Shown here: positions 32,816 to 42,559 of the stretch, in pieces | Numbering within the stretch: position 1 is the stretch's first letter | Layout: each line of letters starts with the position of its first letter | Source of the DNA: a virus | Lineage: Duplodnaviria > Heunggongvirae > Uroviricota > Caudoviricetes | Reading direction: 5' to 3' (one strand) | Virus record (IMG/VR): IMGVR_UViG_2872698443_000008 | Length of the DNA: 42,559 bases | Notes under the pieces: model-generated | Database searches by the model: none | Told to the model about the DNA's origin: nothing | The model's input: only the letters and a program-made list of their open reading frames with translations | Program-made: the position numbers and the translations under genes

Positions 32816-33138
32816 ACTTTCAGGCCCCTCTCATGTAACCAGTGGGCTGCACGCAGCCTGGCGTTTTCCTCACCGGCAAGCAGTGAGCGGATAATCCCGA
32901 CCGCCTCGCTGTCGTCGTCCTTCACCGCGGTATGAAGCGTGATGCCCCGGGCCACGCCACGCTTTATCGTGATGACGCCTTTTTTCTCCAGTGCGCGAAG
33001 ATGCTCCACCGCTGCATTCACTGAACGGTATCCCAGCATGGTTGCCACCTCCTGATTGGTTGGCGGGAAGCCACGTTCTTTCTGATAAGAAATCAGCATA
33101 TCCAGCACCTGCTGCTGGCATTGAGTTAACGTCGTCAT
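32812..33138 (-). CDS. LexA-type DNA-binding domain protein (no peptidase domain)
   Basis: 108 aa, ...QQQVLDMLISYQKERGFPPTNQEVATMLGYRSVNAAVEHLRALEKKGVI... Confidence 0.6.
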   Translation of the reverse strand: MTTLTQCQQQVLDMLISYQKERGFPPTNQEVATMLGYRSVNAAVEHLRALEKKGVITIKRGVARGITLHTAVKDDDSEAVGIIRSLLAGEENARLRAAHWLHERGLKV

Positions 33139-33788
33139 GCCGCCATCTCCCTGACCAGTTTTTCTGCCTGCTGGCGAACCTGCGCCAGAAAGGCCTCACC
33201 ACATGCCTCAAGTTCATCGCGCCCGATGTAGCTGATTGCCGGTCCCTTCCAGGTCTTGTCGAAAACAGCAATAGCACCAGCGAAGAAAGCGCCTGTCGGC
33301 ACCTGCTTCTCATCCTTCGGGATAAACCAGGCAGGCAGTTCAAAACCAATACGCCCGCGAATAAAAGCAATATGATCTGCATCTTCCGGCCACCACACTT
33401 CGCTGGTGGCAGCTTTGATCAGGAAAACATAGCGCCCGCCTTTATCACGCATGGCACTGGCATGCTTCATGATGTAACGCATGCCGGTGATGTATTGCCC
33501 CTCATGCTGACTGGCGCGGCTGTATGGGGGATTACCAAAGGCAGCACCTTTAAGCTCCGCAAGGCGTTCTGACCAGTCATGCGCCAGCGCGTTGTCTTCC
33601 GCCGTGTAATACGCAGCACATTTGGCGTTATCACCGTCAGTGAACAGATCCAGAACAAACGGGCCAAACAGGGTGTTAATTCCCCAGAAAATGTTGTCCG
33701 GCGTGCGCCACTGATCGCCCACTTCCTTCAGTTCATGGGCTGGTTTGTTCCGCAGTTCCGCCAGCGCCTGGCAATATTTATTACTCAT
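33135..33788 (-). CDS. Phage Dam-like N6-adenine DNA methyltransferase
   Basis: NPPY motif (...AAFGNPPYSRA...); start taken at MSNKYCQ. Confidence 0.85.
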   Translation of the reverse strand: MSNKYCQALAELRNKPAHELKEVGDQWRTPDNIFWGINTLFGPFVLDLFTDGDNAKCAAYYTAEDNALAHDWSERLAELKGAAFGNPPYSRASQHEGQYITGMRYIMKHASAMRDKGGRYVFLIKAATSEVWWPEDADHIAFIRGRIGFELPAWFIPKDEKQVPTGAFFAGAIAVFDKTWKGPAISYIGRDELEACGEAFLAQVRQQAEKLVREMAA

Positions 33789-34282
33789 TAAGCCCCCACG
33801 TAATTCCCTGAGAGATACCACTCTTCACCTGATGCAGCCTGCTTACTGCTTTTCCGTAAACACCGTTCACGACGCGCCAGAAAATTGTTTCGTTCTGGCT
33901 GGGAGTGGCTTTCACGGAATGCCGCCATCCACACGGTTGCAGCACGACGGTATAAGCCCCTGGACTCCAGTTCTTCAGCCTGGCGGGTCAGGCACAAAAT
34001 CACCTGGGGATCGTTAGTGCCGACATAGAAATTGCGCACAGGTCTGGTTTCTCGAACTGGTTGTGGTTCCGGTTCCTGCGCTCTCTCAGTCAGGCGCGGG
34101 AAATGTCTGCGTGTATCTCCTTCACAACGGTGAGCCACACGCCCACTCTGACGTAACTTGCTTGCTGACTGCAGAACGCGCTGCCGTGAGTAACCTGCAA
34201 AAGCATCCGCAATGTCTCCGGAAGTACATCCCGGATGGGCTTCAATGAATTTCTGAACTTCATTCAAAAGACTCATGATCAC
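33788..34282 (-). CDS. Hypothetical protein (C-terminal region loosely PerC-like)
   Basis: 164 aa; ...AEELESRGLYRRAATVWMAAFRES... Confidence 0.35.
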   Translation of the reverse strand: MIMSLLNEVQKFIEAHPGCTSGDIADAFAGYSRQRVLQSASKLRQSGRVAHRCEGDTRRHFPRLTERAQEPEPQPVRETRPVRNFYVGTNDPQVILCLTRQAEELESRGLYRRAATVWMAAFRESHSQPERNNFLARRERCLRKSSKQAASGEEWYLSGNYVGA

Positions 34283-35220
34283 CCCCTGAATCCTGCCGGG
34301 ATCTGGCTGTAGTCCACGTTGTCGTAACTGGATTTGAAGTACGGGTCTTCGCGTTTTTCGGTGTACGTGCTAACGGACGGTGATAAGCGCAGGGAAAGCT
34401 CATCCCATTTTTCCCGCAACTTCGACGGGCTGAGCACGTTACGGCACCAGAACGGATCGCGGCTGACGCGGCTGTACATCTCGCAGATTTGTTTGTGAGT
34501 ACGACCATCCTGCACACACATCAGGCGAATTTCGTTTGCCCAGGCTGTCCAGTTCGGTTCTTTGGGACGAACCACCTCGCCGTCACATTCGGCGGCTTGC
34601 TCGTACAGGGCGATGATTTTTTTCCAGAGCCACTGTGCGCAGGTCAAATCATCCTGCGTTCCCCACTGGCGCTTTTTAGGGCTGAATACAACCGCATCAG
34701 GATGGCGAGTTAAAAAATCCTGTTCATCCGTCTGCGTGTCCGGTTGCGAAGCGTCCGGACGAGAAGGTTTTTTATCTGACGGATCATGTTTTGATTTTAC
34801 TGACGGATCCCCGCCAGATTCTGACGGGTGAAAACCCGCTTTTTTGCCAGATTTCGACGCATCAAATTTTGACGGGTCAGATTTTGATGCGTCAGATTTT
34901 GACGGGTCAGAATCTGACAGTTGAGAAAATGCCGCTGCCTGAAGCTTCGCAACGTTAAGCTGATAAACATTCGACGCATTGCGGTTACCCTGGCGACGCG
35001 CCTTACGCGTTAACCAGCCTTCTGCTTCCAGCCGTGCGATAGCCGTTCTGACGGTACTCATTCCCGCGCCAATCTGGCGGGCAATGGTTTCAATTGATGG
35101 CCAGCACACACCTTCGTCATTACTGAAATCAGCCAGGCGGGCCATAATTGCCACGCTGGATAATTTCATGCCTGATGCAGCGCAACCATCCCATACATAG
35201 CCGGTTAATTTAGTGCTCAT
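34279..35220 (-). CDS. Replication initiator (lambda O-like: N-terminal HTH, iterons inside gene)
   Basis: 313 aa; N-terminal HTH ...WPSIETIARQIGAGMSTVRTAIARLEAEGWL...; internal Ser/Asp/Lys repeats encoded by the iteron array. Confidence 0.7.
   Translation of the reverse strand: MSTKLTGYVWDGCAASGMKLSSVAIMARLADFSNDEGVCWPSIETIARQIGAGMSTVRTAIARLEAEGWLTRKARRQGNRNASNVYQLNVAKLQAAAFSQLSDSDPSKSDASKSDPSKFDASKSGKKAGFHPSESGGDPSVKSKHDPSDKKPSRPDASQPDTQTDEQDFLTRHPDAVVFSPKKRQWGTQDDLTCAQWLWKKIIALYEQAAECDGEVVRPKEPNWTAWANEIRLMCVQDGRTHKQICEMYSRVSRDPFWCRNVLSPSKLREKWDELSLRLSPSVSTYTEKREDPYFKSSYDNVDYSQIPAGFRG
34780..34920. repeat. Iteron array (candidate replication origin) inside the initiator gene
   Basis: About eight tandem copies of a 12-14 bp unit, e.g. 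cagattttgacggg, cagattttgatgcg, aaattttgacggg, gattctgacggg. Confidence 0.55.
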
Positions 35221-35229
35221 GACCGACCT

Positions 35230-35568
35230 CTATTTCCCTGAATTTACGACGAAACTGTTCGAGCGGGCTGAAGCACTCATGCTCATAACCTTCGCGGAGG
35301 TAGATAACCCGTTGTGTTTCCGGCTCCCAACGAATGACTCTGACGGGCACTCCGTAGTGATCTTTGAACCAGCGGTTAACTTGTCGCAAAGGACTGTCTC
35401 CTTCTGCCGGTTGAAATCACCCACAGCCCACTCTGCAAAGCTGTGGGTTACAATTTCCCTGTCACCTGGTACATTTACTGCATAGCAATACTCCACCTTC
35501 GCTTTTCCACCCGGTACAGGAAGCGCAATCAGTTGCGAGCGACGGTAGTGTGTTGTTAAACTGTTCAT
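35230..35568 (-). CDS. Hypothetical protein
   Basis: 112 aa ORF translationally coupled to flanking genes. Confidence 0.4.
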
Positions 35569-36128
35569 GCGTTAGTTTCTCCACAGTCACGACACGCCAC
35601 GGCGCCCGGAGCTGCACACTCGCGGGCGTCATTACTTTCTGAAATGCAAAAAATTTTGTAGACCAGTGCTGCATGCTCCTGCAGCTTCGAAATTGAGAGG
35701 TACAGCTCGTCGTTAATTGCTGTCTTCTCATGCGGTTCCACTACACCGTCTTCAATTGCTGAACGAATCTGTTTTGAATAACTGCCGATCTGTTCAATGA
35801 CTTCCAGCAGGCGCTGGTTAATATCGGCGTTGTCCACATCCTCGACGTCAGGAAGAGACACAAAGACGCCATTTGCAGACTGCGCCACAGCGTCAGCAAT
35901 GAAGTGAGTTCCACCAGCACGTTGCAAAATCATTGCCCATCCCAGCGGGAAAATCTGATCGCCATCGGCACGAAGGCGGTTAAATAATGCGTTCTCTGTT
36001 ACATCCAGCCAGTCAGCTGCTTCAGCGTAACCACCCGGCAACTTTGCGATAGTTTTTCTGACAGCTTTCACGTACCACTCAGGCTGTTTTTCTACTTTCC
36101 AGTGATGCTTACCCACGGTTAGCCTCAT
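35565..36128 (-). CDS. CII-position protein, tentatively YdaT-like
   Basis: 187 aa immediately downstream of the Cro/YdaS-like gene; assignment by position and loose resemblance only. Confidence 0.45.
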
Positions 36129-36450: not shown

Positions 36451-37125
36451 ATGAAAACAATCCATGACATCCGGCGGTCTAACGCCAGAAAACTGAGAGA
36501 TGGTGTTGGCGGGAATTCTTCCTTTGCCACTATGATTGATCGCGAGCCAACCCAGACCAGCAGGTTTATGGGAGATGGTGCTACTAAAAATATCGGTGAC
36601 AGCATGGCACGACACATCGAAAAATGTTTCGACCTGCCTGTCGGATGGCTCGATCAAGAACACCAGACAACGAACATCACAAAAAAACCTGATGTTTCAA
36701 TCACTAATAAACAAATCACATTAGTCCCTGTCATATCATGGGTACAGGCCGGAGCATGGAAAGAAGTTGGATATTCTGAGGTTGATTTGAGCACAGCAGA
36801 AACGTATCCCTGCCCTGTACCCTGTGGGGAAATGACTTATATCTTGCGGGTGATAGGTGATTCAATGATTGATGAGTACCGCCCGGGAGACATGATTTTT
36901 GTCGATCCTGAAGTACCTGCCTGCCACGGTGACGACGTTATTGCATTGATGCACGATACAGGCGAAACCACCTTCAAAAGGTTGATAGAAGATGGGACAC
37001 AGCGTTATCTCAAAGCGTTAAACCCAAACTGGCCTGAGCCTTACATTAAGATCAACGGTAATTGCTCTATAATTGGTACAGTGATTTTCTCAGGAAAACC
37101 AAGAAGATACAAAATCAAAGCCTAA
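36451..37125 (+). CDS. CI-like repressor with S24 (LexA-type) autocleavage domain
   Basis: 224 aa; C-terminal ...RVIGDSMIDEYRPGDMIFVD...TTFKRL... (Ser/Lys dyad context). Confidence 0.8.
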   Translation: MKTIHDIRRSNARKLRDGVGGNSSFATMIDREPTQTSRFMGDGATKNIGDSMARHIEKCFDLPVGWLDQEHQTTNITKKPDVSITNKQITLVPVISWVQAGAWKEVGYSEVDLSTAETYPCPVPCGEMTYILRVIGDSMIDEYRPGDMIFVDPEVPACHGDDVIALMHDTGETTFKRLIEDGTQRYLKALNPNWPEPYIKINGNCSIIGTVIFSGKPRRYKIKA

Positions 37126-38470: not shown

Positions 38471-38516
38471 TTTACCCGAATTCAGCGCGGTGCAGCGCAT
38501 ATACGTGGAGAACAAA

Positions 38517-39053
38517 ATGTCATTTATTAAAACTTTTTCCGGGAAGCATTTTTATTATGACAGGATAAATAAAGACGACATCGTTATTAACGATATCGCG
38601 GTTTCCCTTTCAAATATCTGTCGCTTTGCAGGACATCTTTCACACTTCTACAGTGTCGCCCAACATGCGGTGCTTTGCAGCCAGCTGGTGCCGCAGGAAT
38701 TTGCTTTTGAAGCTTTAATGCATGATGCAACAGAAGCATATTGCCAGGACATCCCCGCACCACTGAAACGACTTCTTCCTGACTATAAACGTATGGAAGA
38801 AAAAATAGACGCCGTAATCCGTGAGAAATACGGGTTACCTCCTGTTATGAGCACGCCAGTGAAATATGCCGATCTCATTATGCTGGCAACCGAACGCCGC
38901 GATCTCGGGCTTGATGATGGCTCTTTCTGGCCTGTACTGGAAGGTATCCCGGCAACAGAGATGTTCAAAGTGATTCCACAGGCACCGGGCCATGCCTACG
39001 GGATGTTTATGGAACGTTTTAACGAGTTATCGGAGTTACGCAAATGCGCATGA
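38517..39053 (+). CDS. HD-domain phosphohydrolase (YfdR-like 5'-deoxynucleotidase)
   Basis: Start at MSFIKTFSGKHFYY; H...HD motif (AQHAV ... ALMHDATEAY). Confidence 0.75.
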   Translation: MSFIKTFSGKHFYYDRINKDDIVINDIAVSLSNICRFAGHLSHFYSVAQHAVLCSQLVPQEFAFEALMHDATEAYCQDIPAPLKRLLPDYKRMEEKIDAVIREKYGLPPVMSTPVKYADLIMLATERRDLGLDDGSFWPVLEGIPATEMFKVIPQAPGHAYGMFMERFNELSELRKCA

Positions 39054-39406
39054 ATGTTTTCGAAATGGAAGGGTTTCTTCGTGGGAGATGTGTACCGCGA
39101 GATCTGAAAGTGAATGAAACAGATGCTGAATACCTGGTACGTAAATTCGATGCGCTTGAAGCTAAATGTACAGCACTGGAAAACAAAGTAATACCAGTGT
39201 CAGCTGAACTGCCGCCAGCAAATGAAAGTGTTCTGTTATTTGATGCTAATGGAGAAGGCTGGCTGATTGGCTGGCGTTCTCTCTGGTACACCTGGGGACA
39301 AAAAGAAACCGGAGAATGGCAGTGGACATTTCAGGTCGGGGACCTTGAAAACGTCAATATCACTCACTGGGCAGTAATGCCAAAAGCACCGGAGGCTGGA
39401 GCATAA
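39044..39406 (+). CDS. Hypothetical early protein (DUF551-like)
   Basis: 120 aa, Trp-rich C-terminus; overlaps preceding gene end. Confidence 0.45.
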   Translation: MRMNVFEMEGFLRGRCVPRDLKVNETDAEYLVRKFDALEAKCTALENKVIPVSAELPPANESVLLFDANGEGWLIGWRSLWYTWGQKETGEWQWTFQVGDLENVNITHWAVMPKAPEAGA

Positions 39407-39711
39407 TGACCACTTTTACCGACAAAGAACTGATTAAAGAAATTAAAGAGCGTATCAGCAGCCTTGACGTGCGAGACGATATTGAGCGCCGTGCTTATGA
39501 AATCGCACTCCTATCTCTGGAAGTAGAACCAGATGAACGCGAAGCTTATGAATTATTCATGGAAAAGCGTTTCGGTGACTTAGTAGATCGTCGGAGAGCA
39601 AAAAACGGCGATAACGAATACATGGCATGGGATATGACTCTCGGTTGGATCGTCTGGCAGCAACGAGCTGGTATCCATTTTTCAACAATGTCACAACAAG
39701 AGGTGAAATAA
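39406..39711 (+). CDS. Hypothetical early protein
   Basis: 101 aa, acidic; ATGA-coupled to the preceding gene. Confidence 0.45.
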   Translation: MTTFTDKELIKEIKERISSLDVRDDIERRAYEIALLSLEVEPDEREAYELFMEKRFGDLVDRRRAKNGDNEYMAWDMTLGWIVWQQRAGIHFSTMSQQEVK

Positions 39712-40061
39712 TGGAGCCATACAGCCTCACACTCGATGAGGCCTGTCATTTTCTCAAGATATCCAGACCGACTGCCATTAACTGGATACGCACAGGGCGT
39801 CTTCAGGCAACACGTAAAGATCCCACTAAGAATAAATCTCCTTACCTCACAACACGACAAGCCTGCATTGCGGCTCTTCAGTCTCCGCTGCATACTGTCC
39901 AGGTGAGCGCGGGTGATGGCATAACAGAGGAAAGAAAATGTCACTCTTCCGCAGAGGTGAAATATGGTACGCCAGTTTCACATTGCCGAACGGTAAAAGA
40001 TTTAAACAGTCTCTTGGAACAAAGGACAAAAGGCAGGCGACAGAACTCCATGACAAGCTAA
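39711..40061 (+). CDS. xis: Excisionase (AlpA/Xis-type HTH)
   Basis: Start at [36 protein letters not shown]; 116 aa frame overlapping the integrase start by about 120 nt. Confidence 0.7.
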
Positions 40062-41101
40062 AGGCTGAAGCATGGCGGGTCAGCAAACTTGGTGAAATAC
40101 CTGATATAACGTTCGAGGAAGCTTGTGTCAGGTGGCTTGAAGAGAAAGCACATAAAAAATCACTGGACGATGACAAAAGCCGGATCGGATTCTGGCTTCA
40201 ACATTTCGCAGGAATGCAACTAAGAGACATTACTGAATCAAAAATTTATTCAGCAATGCAGAAAATGACGAACCGGCGTCATGAGGAAAACTGGAAACTC
40301 AGGGCAGAAGCATGCAGAAAAAAAGGGAAACCTGTTCCAGAATACACGCCAAAACCAGCGTCCGTTGCAACGAAGGCTACGCATCTTTCATTTATAAAGG
40401 CCCTACTAAGAGCCGCAGAGCGTGAATGGAAAATGCTGGATAAGGCACCAATTATTAAAGTGCCTCAACCAAAGAATAAACGGATCCGCTGGCTGGAGCC
40501 CCATGAAGCACAAAGGCTGATTGATGAATGTCCGGAGCCATTAAAGTCTGTTGTTGAATTTGCACTGGCAACAGGCTTAAGACGCTCGAACATCATCAAC
40601 CTTGAATGGCAACAAATAGATATGCAGCGCCGGGTGGCATGGATAAACCCGGAAGAGAGTAAATCAAACCGCGCAATTGGCGTTGCGCTGAATGATACTG
40701 CATGTCGCGTATTGAAAAAACAAATCGGGAATCATCACCGTTGGGTATTTGTGTACAAGGAAAGCTGTACCAAACCAGACGGAACGAAAGCGCCAACAGT
40801 AAGGAAGATGCGGTATGACGCAAACACAGCCTGGAAAGCGGCGCTGAGACGGGCTGGTATTGATGATTTCAGATTTCACGACTTGAGACACACCTGGGCA
40901 AGTTGGCTGGTTCAAGCCGGAGTCCCGTTGTCAGTGTTACAGGAAATGGGAGGCTGGGAGTCTATCGAAATGGTTCGTCGATATGCTCACCTTGCACCTA
41001 ATCACCTTACCGAACACGCACGGCAAATAGACTCGATCCTGAACCCATCGGTCCCAAATTTGTCCCAGTCAAAAAATAAGGAAGGTACTAATGATGTGTA
41101 A
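39938..41101 (+). CDS. int: Tyrosine integrase (P22 Int type, thrW-specific)
   Basis: 387 aa, [40 protein letters not shown]...; catalytic region ...[20 protein letters not shown]...VRRYAHL; ends 15 nt from the tRNA. Confidence 0.95.
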
Positions 41102-41115
41102 CTTATTGATTTAAA

Positions 41116-41191
41116 TGGTGCCGATAATAGGAGTCGAACCTACGACCTTCGCATTACGAATGCGCTGCTCTACCAACTGAGCTATATCGGC
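41116..41191 (-). tRNA. thrW: tRNA-Thr (anticodon CGU)
   Basis: Reverse complement reads GCCGATATAGCTCAGTTGGTAGAGCAGCGCATTCGTAATGCGAAGGTCGTAGGTTCGACTCCTATTATCGGCACCA. Confidence 0.9.
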
Positions 41192-41305
41192 CCTGAAAGG
41201 ACATGTTCACGAACGTGAATCACGGTGGACAAGGTTAAAACTAACCGGGCGATGCGTCAATGGCCTTGTGAATCAAATGGCTACTTTTGCATCACCCGGT
41301 TTTAT

Positions 41306-42559
41306 TTACGCACGAATGGTGTAATCACCAATGCCGATCCACTTGTAAGTGGTCAGTGCTTCCAGCCCCATTGGGCCACGCGCGTGGAGTTTTTGTGTGC
41401 TTACCGCCACTTCCGCACCCAGACCAAACTGGCCGCCGTCGGTAAAACGCGTAGAGGCGTTAACGTAAACAGCGGACGAATCCACTTCGTTAACAAAACG
41501 CTGGGCGTTGCGCATATCGCGGGTCAGGATCGCATCGGAGTGTTGTGTGCCGTGTTCACGAATATGGGCGATGGCATCGTCAAGATCGCTGACGATTTTG
41601 ACGTTCAAATCTAATGACAGAAACTCATCGTCATACTCTTCGGCTTTAACAGCAACCACCTTCGCAGGGCCTGCCTGCAACTGCGCCAGTGCAGCTGCAT
41701 CTGCGTGTAATGTCACGCCGCTTTCCGCCATTTGTTTGCTTAATGCGGGCAGGAAGCTATCGGCGATGTTTTTATTCACCAGCAACGTTTCAACCGTATT
41801 ACATGTGCTCGGACGCTGAGTTTTCGCGTTGACGATCACTTTTAATGCTTCAGCGATCTCTACACTTTCATCAACGTAAATATGGCATACGCCTATACCA
41901 CCTGTGATCACCGGGATTGTCGACTGTTCACGGCACAGTTTATGCAAACCAGCGCCACCACGCGGGATCAGCATGTCGATGTATTTATCCATACGCAGCA
42001 TTTCACTGACCAGCGCACGGTCAGGATTATCAATCGCCTGCACGGCACCCGCCGGTAAGCCGCAGGATTTCAGGACGTCCTGAATCACCGCCACCGTTGC
42101 AGCGTTAGTGCGACACGTTTCTTTGCCACCGCGCAGGATCACCGCATTACCGGTTTTCAGGCACAGCGAAGCGACATCAACCGTCACGTTCGGGCGCGCT
42201 TCATAAATCACGCCAATAACCCCCAGCGGTACGCGACGACGCTCAAGACGCAGGCCGCTGTCCAGTACGCCGCCATCGATTACCTGCCCCACCGGATCGG
42301 CGAGGTTGCACACCTGACGTACATCGTCGGCAATGCCTTTCAGCCGTGCGGGCGTCAGTGCCAGACGGTCAAGCATCGCTTCGCTAAGGCCATTGGCTCG
42401 CGCGTCAGCAACATCCTGGGCGTTAGCGTTGAGGATGATTTCGCTTTGTGCTTCCAGTTCATCGGCGATTTTTTCCAGCACGCGATTTTTTTCGCGGCTG
42501 GAGAGTTGCGCTAATTTATACGAGGCTTGCTTCGCGGCAATGCCCATTTGTTCCAGCAT
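41306..42559 (-). CDS. proA: Gamma-glutamyl phosphate reductase
   Basis: 417 aa, [34 protein letters not shown]...; aldehyde dehydrogenase family; start coincides with the window end. Confidence 0.95.

Follow-up and report, generated by a model that had tools for sequence, protein, structure and literature searches.

The stretch of DNA considered here (hereafter the window; 42,559 nucleotides, IMG/VR virus record IMGVR_UViG_2872698443_000008, Caudoviricetes) is an SfII/SfIV-like lambdoid prophage of 42.5 kb, and our subject is a repeat element at positions 34762-34920 that lies within the replication initiator gene of this prophage and is a probable replication origin. The gene, a minus-strand open reading frame (ORF) at 34279-35220, encodes a protein of 313 amino acids (aa) that matches PHROG 391 ('replication initiation O-like') along its full length (E 1e-135). 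Its DNA shares 98-99% identity with SfIV gp41 ('primosomal protein'), with the SfII gene for an 'O protein family protein' and with several genes called 'replication protein O' in E. coli phages; because of its identity to the genes of SfII and of SfIV, an isolated and characterised phage (PMC3851460), it can be assigned to working phages.

A first-pass annotation, made from the sequence alone, had reported about eight tandem copies of a WTTTYGACGG-type unit at 34780-34920 inside an O-like gene, and repeats are indeed found there, within the minus-strand ORF. A scan of both strands for this motif, allowing up to two mismatches, returned plus-strand matches at 34773, 34797, 34818, 34851, 34866, 34881 and 34896, together with a spurious one at 34841; elsewhere in the window the density was about one match per 550 nt for both strands together. 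An eighth unit, near 34911 (AATCTGACAG), was recognised by sequence inspection. The count of eight holds, but only five of the units are tandem, at 15-bp spacing, with the other three standing at irregular in-frame distances, and Tandem Repeats Finder reported a 15-nt period with 4.3 copies over 34848-34911. The motif as originally drawn is also out of register: a repeat search identified the units as inverted repeats of each other, and in the correct register each repeat is a palindrome of 13 bp, GTCAGA-W-TCTGAC. Six of the eight GACGG units are palindromic iterons, and the other two belong to a second class, GATC-bearing repeats of 24 nt (34762-34809). On the gene strand all eight lie in one frame, encoding LSDSDPSKSDASKSDPSKFDASKSG...HPSESGGDPSVKSKHDPSD, and the suggestion that they are mirrored in an SD/SK-rich protein linker proved correct, since the array encodes LSDSDPSKSDASKSDPSKFDASKSG (aa 101-125). 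The iterons occupy codons 101-135 of the 313, and the 24-nt repeats codons 137-152.

Iterons were scored with a 17-nt position weight matrix (PWM) that was refined on 83 related loci, with the window included in the training. This identified six sites in 34811-34920, scoring 17.6-26.7 bits, compared with a best score of 11.4 bits elsewhere in the 42.5 kb. In 100 shuffles there were never more than two PWM matches in any 150-nt span, and the matrix revealed no second iteron cluster in the window. Iteron 1 (34904-34920; gene strand CTGTCAGATTCTGACCC) contains the perfect 13-bp palindrome GTCAGATTCTGAC and scores 20.2 bits on the minus and 20.5 bits on the plus strand. It is followed at 15-bp spacing by iteron 2 (34889-34905; CCGTCAAAATCTGACGC; 26.7 and 19.5 bits), iteron 3 (34874-34890; GCATCAAAATCTGACCC; 24.0 and 16.0 bits), iteron 4 (34859-34875; CCGTCAAAATTTGATGC; 21.7 and 18.8 bits) and iteron 5 (34844-34860; GCGTCGAAATCTGGCAA), the weakest copy, which scores 17.6 bits on the minus strand only. 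A spacer with an A6 and a T4 tract (34828-34843; gene strand AAAAAAGCGGGTTTTCAC) then puts iteron 6 (34811-34827; CCGTCAGAATCTGGCGG; 23.8 and 20.1 bits) at 33 nt from iteron 5, and the A-tract-N5-TTTT(C/G)AC pattern of this spacer is kept in relatives. Five of the six iterons are palindromic, since at identical coordinates the opposite strand scores 16-20.5 bits, and because iteron 6 stands alone we define the palindrome as the unit.

With a centre-to-centre spacing of 15 bp, successive sites lie about 154 degrees apart around the helix, a geometry that suggests a protein coat or filament, not wrapping in the style of lambda. The distance from one half-site centre to the next is 6 bp inside a unit (inverted pair) and 9 bp across neighbouring units (everted pair), and by sequence either pair could form the actual dimer site. 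The single strand of 34760-34930 (minus) is predicted to fold strongly (-53.2 kcal/mol, z = -5.7 against shuffled controls) because the palindromes pair with one another; we read the fold as a by-product of arrayed palindromes that each have a 1-nt centre, not as a sign of an RNA element, although such folding could matter for an unwound or single-stranded state of an origin. The only result of a promoter and terminator scan was a terminator-like hairpin on the plus strand, antisense to the initiator gene and inside the A/T-tract spacer (34825-34848; CGGGTGAAAACCCG followed by CTTTTTT). It was set aside, as the hairpin is not conserved in relatives, though the A-tract/T-tract pattern is.

The collection of related loci comprised seven phage loci and 80 genomic loci from many Enterobacterales genera, leaving 83 distinct loci after truncated copies were removed; the N-terminal domains encoded at the genomic loci are 52-100% identical to that of the query initiator. 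The array is present in all 83, with 516 PWM matches, 2-11 copies per locus (mode 6) and the consensus sCgTCArAaTCTGac, and of the 433 gaps between iterons 340 measure 15 nt and 66 measure 33 nt. Because the PWM had been trained on these same loci, including the window, we relied on codon tests that are independent of the matrix. Among the 348 Ser-x-Ser tripeptides in the linkers of the 83 loci, the first serine is encoded by TCA in 313 cases (90%) and by TCT in none; for the second, TCT is used 277 times (80%) and TCA once. At the middle position AAA occurs 175 times and AAG not at all, and GAA outnumbers GAG by 101 to two. Outside the linker, Ser-x-Ser tripeptides of the same proteins have mixed codons. 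Region-wide usage follows the same lines, with TCA and TCT making up fractions of 0.43 and 0.40 of the serine codons in the linker versus 0.11 and 0.09 in the N-terminal domain of the same genes, and AAA 0.94 of the lysine codons versus 0.59. In the N-terminal domain, taken as a control, 29 conserved four-fold-degenerate sites carry 0.35 bit on average (maximum 0.76), which means that synonymous positions in this sample are otherwise near saturation. The repeats are conserved as nucleotides, not as amino acids.

The strongest single observation for constraint at the DNA level is a change of frame with retained DNA in phiP27 (L007) and in a Citrobacter locus (L079). In both, the T-tract and iteron 6 lie between the members of a -1/+1 indel pair; TTTT(G/C)ACCC(T/G)TCAGAATCTG is kept, and the peptide FHPSESGG becomes LTLQNLDP in phiP27 or FTRQNLTP in L079. 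These results bear on the notion that the repeats are only a low-complexity Ser/Asp/Lys/Pro linker, lengthened by slippage during replication and without a role as DNA. The single reading frame shared by all eight units of the window, a copy number that ranges from 2 to 11 as slippage would give, and the predicted disorder of the segment would all fit such a history, but it leaves unexplained the position-specific codons across 83 loci, the near-random synonymous sites of the N-terminal domain, the DNA kept in the two loci whose frame and peptide changed, and the palindromic form of the units, for which a peptide repeat provides no reason. We therefore find slippage barely credible as the whole account of the array.

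In the direction of transcription the iterons are followed by a segment that is A-rich on the coding strand and contains the second-class repeats: repeat 1 at 34786-34809 (gene strand GATCCGTCAGTAAAATCAAAACAT), with GATC at 34806-34809, and repeat 2 at 34762-34785 (GATCCGTCAGATAAAAAACCTTCT), with GATC at 34782-34785. Each consists of GATCCGTCAG and an A-rich tail and has one conserved GATC, and the stretch GGGGATCCGTCAGTAAAWTCAA....GATCCATCAGATAAAAAACC varies hardly at all among genera that range from Escherichia to Providencia, Rahnella and Pantoea. Two copies are present in 59 loci and three or four in eight, 24 nt apart in 64 of the 76 gaps. The aspartate codon before proline is GAT in 150 cases versus GAC in 19, which creates the GATC, whereas inside the iteron array aspartate is encoded by GAC 280 times and by GAT 125 times. 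Across the window GATC is not enriched (164 observed, 168 expected), and only the two sites in the element are notable, being conserved. Within the gene, duplex stability is lowest in the 30- and 40-nt segments that begin at 34770 and 34762, both in the 24-nt repeats, and these segments rank among the least stable 2.4-2.9% of the window; the repeat pair is a candidate unwinding element. A possible IHF site seen by eye in repeat 1 has one mismatch and is not conserved, and was dropped. Sister subfamilies with different iterons have a similar short repeat, GAACCAGTCA, in two or three copies.

The protein encoded around the element falls into three parts. Its N-terminal domain (aa 1-98; 34927-35220, minus strand) matches the Pfam family HTH_36 (PF13730; E 4e-11, 42.9 bits against a cut-off of 25) and was modelled by AlphaFold2 (AF2) as a winged helix with four helices and a two-strand wing, for which Foldseek returned generic MarR/ArsR-type winged-helix proteins only, all at E > 0.001. 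This is presumed to be the iteron-binding domain. It gave no match to Phage_rep_O (PF04492) at E <= 0.01, a family that lambda O and P22 gp18 match at 6e-36 and 7e-38, and no plasmid Rep family scored above threshold in the initiator (RP-C, 17.2 bits against a cut-off of 24.4). There follows a linker (aa 102-162; 34735-34917, minus strand) that is predicted to be disordered, with a predicted local distance difference test (pLDDT) score below 50 in the AF2 model, and for this reason constraint on the protein in the linker is taken to be low; the cis element occupies exactly this modelled inter-domain linker. The C-terminal domain (aa ~166-280; 34381-34725, minus strand), helical in the AF2 model with pLDDT 84-95, is homologous to that of lambda O: BLASTP against lambda O gave E 7e-26 with 31% identity over 216 aligned columns, the aligned region being aa 70-277 and the conserved block aa 172-277. 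A sequence search of solved structures, like Foldseek, produced just the generic MarR/ArsR winged-helix matches, and neither found a match for the C-terminal domain. The description of the gene as O-like is accordingly apt for the C-terminal domain but not for the putative origin-binding domain, and by these matches the initiator combines a lambda-type C-terminal domain with a different, presumed origin-recognition module.

Two further features of the protein's end are worth recording. Over its final 76 nt the initiator gene has 96-97% identity with SfV, mEp460, cdtI and Stx2 phages that have otherwise different initiators, which places a mosaic joint inside the C-terminal tail. Beyond this, two C-terminal tails recur on initiators whatever the type of C-terminal domain (window 34279-34360, minus strand; loci L002-L088), one of the form ...VDYS..P.GFR(G/S/T), which in the window reads IPAGFRG, and one of the form ...W..IW.(E/Q)...; both are absent from phiP27-type proteins, which precede a DnaC-like gene. 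The tails may serve as short motifs for the recruitment of host factors.

Across the related loci the array accompanies the HTH_36 N-terminal domain through five types of C-terminal domain. The same N-terminal domain and array are joined to a Phg_2220_C domain in 61 loci, to a lambda-O-type domain in 17, to a phiP27-type domain in two and to two singleton types, and the mosaic joint lies immediately after the 24-nt repeats. (C-terminal domain types were assigned by reference-based typing, as single-linkage clustering had merged all of them through the shared tails.) Initiators whose HTH_36 domains are about 40% identical have different repeats in the same place, palindromic by inspection: GGGGCAGGAGCTGCCCC three times in Min27, about four imperfect copies of a GTGCA...TTCAC-type repeat in mEp460/ST64B, and TATGCCA-N4-TGGCAC in RAH1. 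Within the family, divergent lineages have changed both half-sites symmetrically (TTCAGAATCTGAA; CCTCCAGAATCTGGAGG, a perfect 17-bp palindrome), and such variant iterons coincide, by inspection, with substitutions in the presumed recognition helix, from STVRTAI to STVITAI, STIRGAI or STVYGAL. Matched changes of half-site and helix are the pattern that would be expected of a dimeric protein reading a dyad-symmetric site.

These associations also speak to another explanation, in which the element serves some other factor, such as a host protein, a regulator from a neighbouring gene (PerC-like or cII-like) or a system related to SeqA/Dam, or is a hotspot for mosaic recombination, in either case unrelated to the N-terminal domain. 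Such a role could account for mosaic joints placed right after the element, for the conservation of GATC (the 150 to 19 preference for GAT before proline) in loci where methylase genes are often adjacent, and for a second-class repeat that stays similar where the iterons differ (GATCCGTCAG compared with GAACCAGTCA). It accords poorly with the fact that the N-terminal domain and iterons stay together while flanking genes and C-terminal domains vary, and that the iteron sequence changes when the N-terminal domain family changes, and we judge it very unlikely.

The initiator gene lies in a minus-strand gene order typical of an early rightward operon, which starts at a divergent cI-type repressor gene (36451-37125, plus strand; Peptidase_S24). 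A cro-like ORF on the minus strand stands between this gene and a cII-like gene (35565-36128, minus strand; Phage_CP76), and a small minus-strand ORF lies between the cII-like gene and the initiator. Two ORFs upstream of the initiator overlap on the same strand in different frames, each with family support: one of 59 aa at 35210-35389 (minus; Pfam DUF4222, E 9e-19; PHROG 1343) and one of 112 aa at 35230-35568 (minus; PHROG 1170, E 3e-70), the latter being the one annotated in SfIV. Directly 3' of the initiator is a PerC-family gene, a yfdN homolog of 164 aa (33788-34282, minus strand), which occupies the position of lambda P and overlaps the initiator stop codon by 4 nt, without similarity to lambda P. 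It is followed by a Dam-family methylase gene (33135-33821, minus strand), past which lie a LexA-like gene, RusA, more genes and a Q-like antiterminator. In related loci the gene directly downstream of the initiator is a PerC-like yfdN homolog in 24, a Dam-family methylase in 22 and another type of methyltransferase in several, with a DnaC-like gene in only five of 82 classified loci. Methyltransferase genes lie directly after or near the initiator in many loci (the window and, for instance, L002-L006, L011, L012, L091 and L093), and judged by sequence they appear to represent four or more different families: PF05869 Dam, an E. coli Dam-like type, an adenine methylase with a DPAW motif and a cytosine-C5 type. 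At its right end (38490-42559) the window resembles CPS-53 and serotype-converting phages, with a YfdR-like 5'-deoxynucleotidase (38490-39053), an integrase (39938-41101) and a minus-strand ORF of 417 aa that runs to the window edge (PHROG 13417) and may be a serotype-specific O-antigen glucosyltransferase.

Members of this initiator family are present in prophages of many Enterobacterales genera, and a 401-nt probe spanning the element matched 2104 of 5426 complete E. coli genomes. The initiator corresponds to yfdO of the K-12 CPS-53 prophage, the K-12 copy of which is an N-terminally truncated pseudogene. In the CPS-53 yfdO of K-12 J53 (L095, 2130-2837) the probe match stops at window coordinate 34987; this copy has kept the iterons and the C-terminal domain and lost most of the DNA-binding domain, and it adjoins yfdN and a truncated methylase gene, yfdM.

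Taken together, we interpret 34762-34920 as, in all probability, the vegetative (theta-type) replication origin of the SfII/SfIV-like prophage, carried inside the linker-coding part of its initiator gene. What these loci show directly is the anatomy of the element, its constraint as DNA, the dyad symmetry, the link with the N-terminal domain and the domain homologies, which together provide comparative evidence for an element that acts in cis, is linked to the initiator and is laid out like a lambdoid origin; the likeness to lambda ori inside O that was drawn in the first-pass annotation is upheld to this extent. Initiator binding, strand opening, helicase loading and origin activity we infer by analogy from what is established for the lambda O/ori system. 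On this model the early rightward operon (cro, the cII-like gene, the small ORF and the initiator) would be transcribed through the site and the initiator made. Dimers of its N-terminal winged-helix domain would then bind the six 13-bp iterons, five of them packed at 15 bp and one beyond the phased A/T-tract, and the resulting nucleoprotein complex would destabilise the adjoining pair of 24-nt repeats. Finally, the lambda-O-type C-terminal domain would bring in the host DnaB helicase, either directly via host factors or through an unrecognised phage partner.

Several observations weigh against this interpretation. The AT-rich part is only moderate (about 69% AT over 35 nt by hand count) and weaker than that of lambda, and the cI/cro intergenic regions are less stable than the AT-rich repeats. 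The 15-bp spacing is not in helical phase, compared with 20-24 bp in lambda. DnaA boxes (TTWTNCACA) number zero on both strands of the 42.5 kb, where shuffled sequence would lead one to expect 3.7. A search of the window for a P, DnaC-like or DnaB-like gene was negative, tblastn with P, gp12, a DnaC-like protein, RAH1 P and Min27 P giving no match, so that helicase loading must use host factors or an unrecognised phage partner, and the model assigns no known phage gene to the step from origin recognition to helicase loading. All 83 loci were retrieved via the N-terminal domain, and they are not phylogenetically independent. The searchable literature yielded no description of this initiator/iteron family or of its repeats.

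Some of the same facts would suit a site that the initiator binds as an operator, a roadblock or a copy-control (titration or handcuffing) element, with replication starting elsewhere in the phage. Initiators that bind iterons commonly regulate themselves and pair origins, as plasmid Rep proteins do, and the modest AT-rich part, the less stable DNA 1.3-1.9 kb away in the cI/cro intergenic region and the missing DnaA boxes are what a mainly regulatory site might show. However, conserved A-rich GATC repeats always adjoin the iterons and travel with them, the layout copies that of the lambda and P22 origins, and the window has no second iteron cluster, which makes a regulatory site an unlikely explanation.

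If the element is an origin, it could be an 'initiator-only' origin that operates without a phage helicase loader, the lambda-O-type or Phg_2220_C-type C-terminal domain, or the VDYS..P.GFR(G/S/T) tail, recruiting DnaB directly or via DnaC. The second-class repeats (GATCCGTCAG plus A-rich tail, or GAACCAGTCA in the sister initiators) would then be a distinct opening or licensing element, read as single-stranded DNA or controlled by adenine methylation at its two invariant GATC sites. We offer this more specific scheme tentatively, as possible though on balance doubtful; the link to methylation is worth testing because methyltransferase genes so often adjoin the initiator gene. How such initiators, in the absence of a helicase-loader gene, load the host helicase is a question open to experiment, and the element also offers a clear case from nature in which the codons of a disordered linker are dictated by a cis element. 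For annotation, pipelines label the gene only as 'helix-turn-helix domain-containing protein', and knowledge of the origin and of its specificity module would improve the description of prophages in a family that includes the serotype-converting Shigella phages SfII and SfIV and the CPS-53 remnant of K-12. It would also help to predict replication incompatibility or interference between co-resident prophages.

Among known systems, iteron plasmids (Rep/pi/RepA-type) and P1 oriR likewise have winged-helix initiators that bind arrays of direct repeats beside an AT-rich region, and P1 oriR has GATC-bearing repeats that depend on Dam methylation. Iterons of plasmids, units of about 19-22 bp in helical phase, are spaced at about 22 bp. 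The present element differs from the iteron plasmids in its 15-bp spacing, its position inside an ORF, the lack of an above-threshold Rep match in its initiator and the lack of DnaA boxes.

Iterons inside the initiator gene are textbook knowledge for lambda, and the correspondence with lambda ori in O is close: dyad-symmetric repeats occupy the middle of the initiator gene, where the linker is encoded, the coding strand is A-rich after them in the direction of transcription, the gene stands in the early rightward operon after a cII-type gene, and the C-terminal domains are homologous (E 7e-26). Lambda has four iterons, at codons 117-145 of the 299 of O, followed by the A-rich coding-strand stretch. 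The differences lie in the parts. The N-terminal domain of lambda O is Phage_rep_O and that of the present initiator HTH_36; the 18-bp units of lambda, at 20-24 bp, compare here with the 13-bp palindrome TCAGA-W-TCTGA, in five copies at 15-bp spacing plus one; and, unlike in lambda, the AT-rich part consists of two 24-nt GATC repeats and there is no P gene. In P22, an annotated rep_origin lies at codons ~118-166 of the 271 of gene 18, with the same polarity and relative position as here, but its GGTAAAAC-type repeats are unrelated to the present ones, gp18 has a Phage_rep_O N-terminal domain, and a DnaB-type helicase gene follows. Because both the N-domain family and the repeats differ, we rejected P22 gene 18 as a homolog.

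The origin of phage L has been inferred from six imprecise 11-bp repeats in gene 18, in a genome paper that treats intragenic repeats of the lambda, P22 and L initiators as origins (PMC8022706). In PMC7466680, O proteins of Stx phages, in E. coli lambdoid prophages, are described as binding iterons inside their own gene at six-iteron origins, and the replication regions of these phages as highly similar to that of lambda; compared with them, the N-terminal domain and iterons described here belong to another family. An origin inside the initiator gene is thus a known arrangement, described for lambda, P22, L and Stx phages, and what is unusual here is in the details: no loader gene, conserved GATC repeats, dense 15-bp phasing and an HTH_36 recognition domain. 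Also close to the present system are the sister HTH_36-type initiators of SfV, mEp460 and ST64B (Sb42), the Min27 'O' and the Klebsiella RAH1 'O', with N-terminal domains of 39-45% identity. Their iteron sequences differ, and a gene annotated 'P' follows in RAH1 and Min27, but like the initiator of the window they have palindromic-looking repeats at the same linker position, followed by the short second-class repeat GAACCAGTCA.

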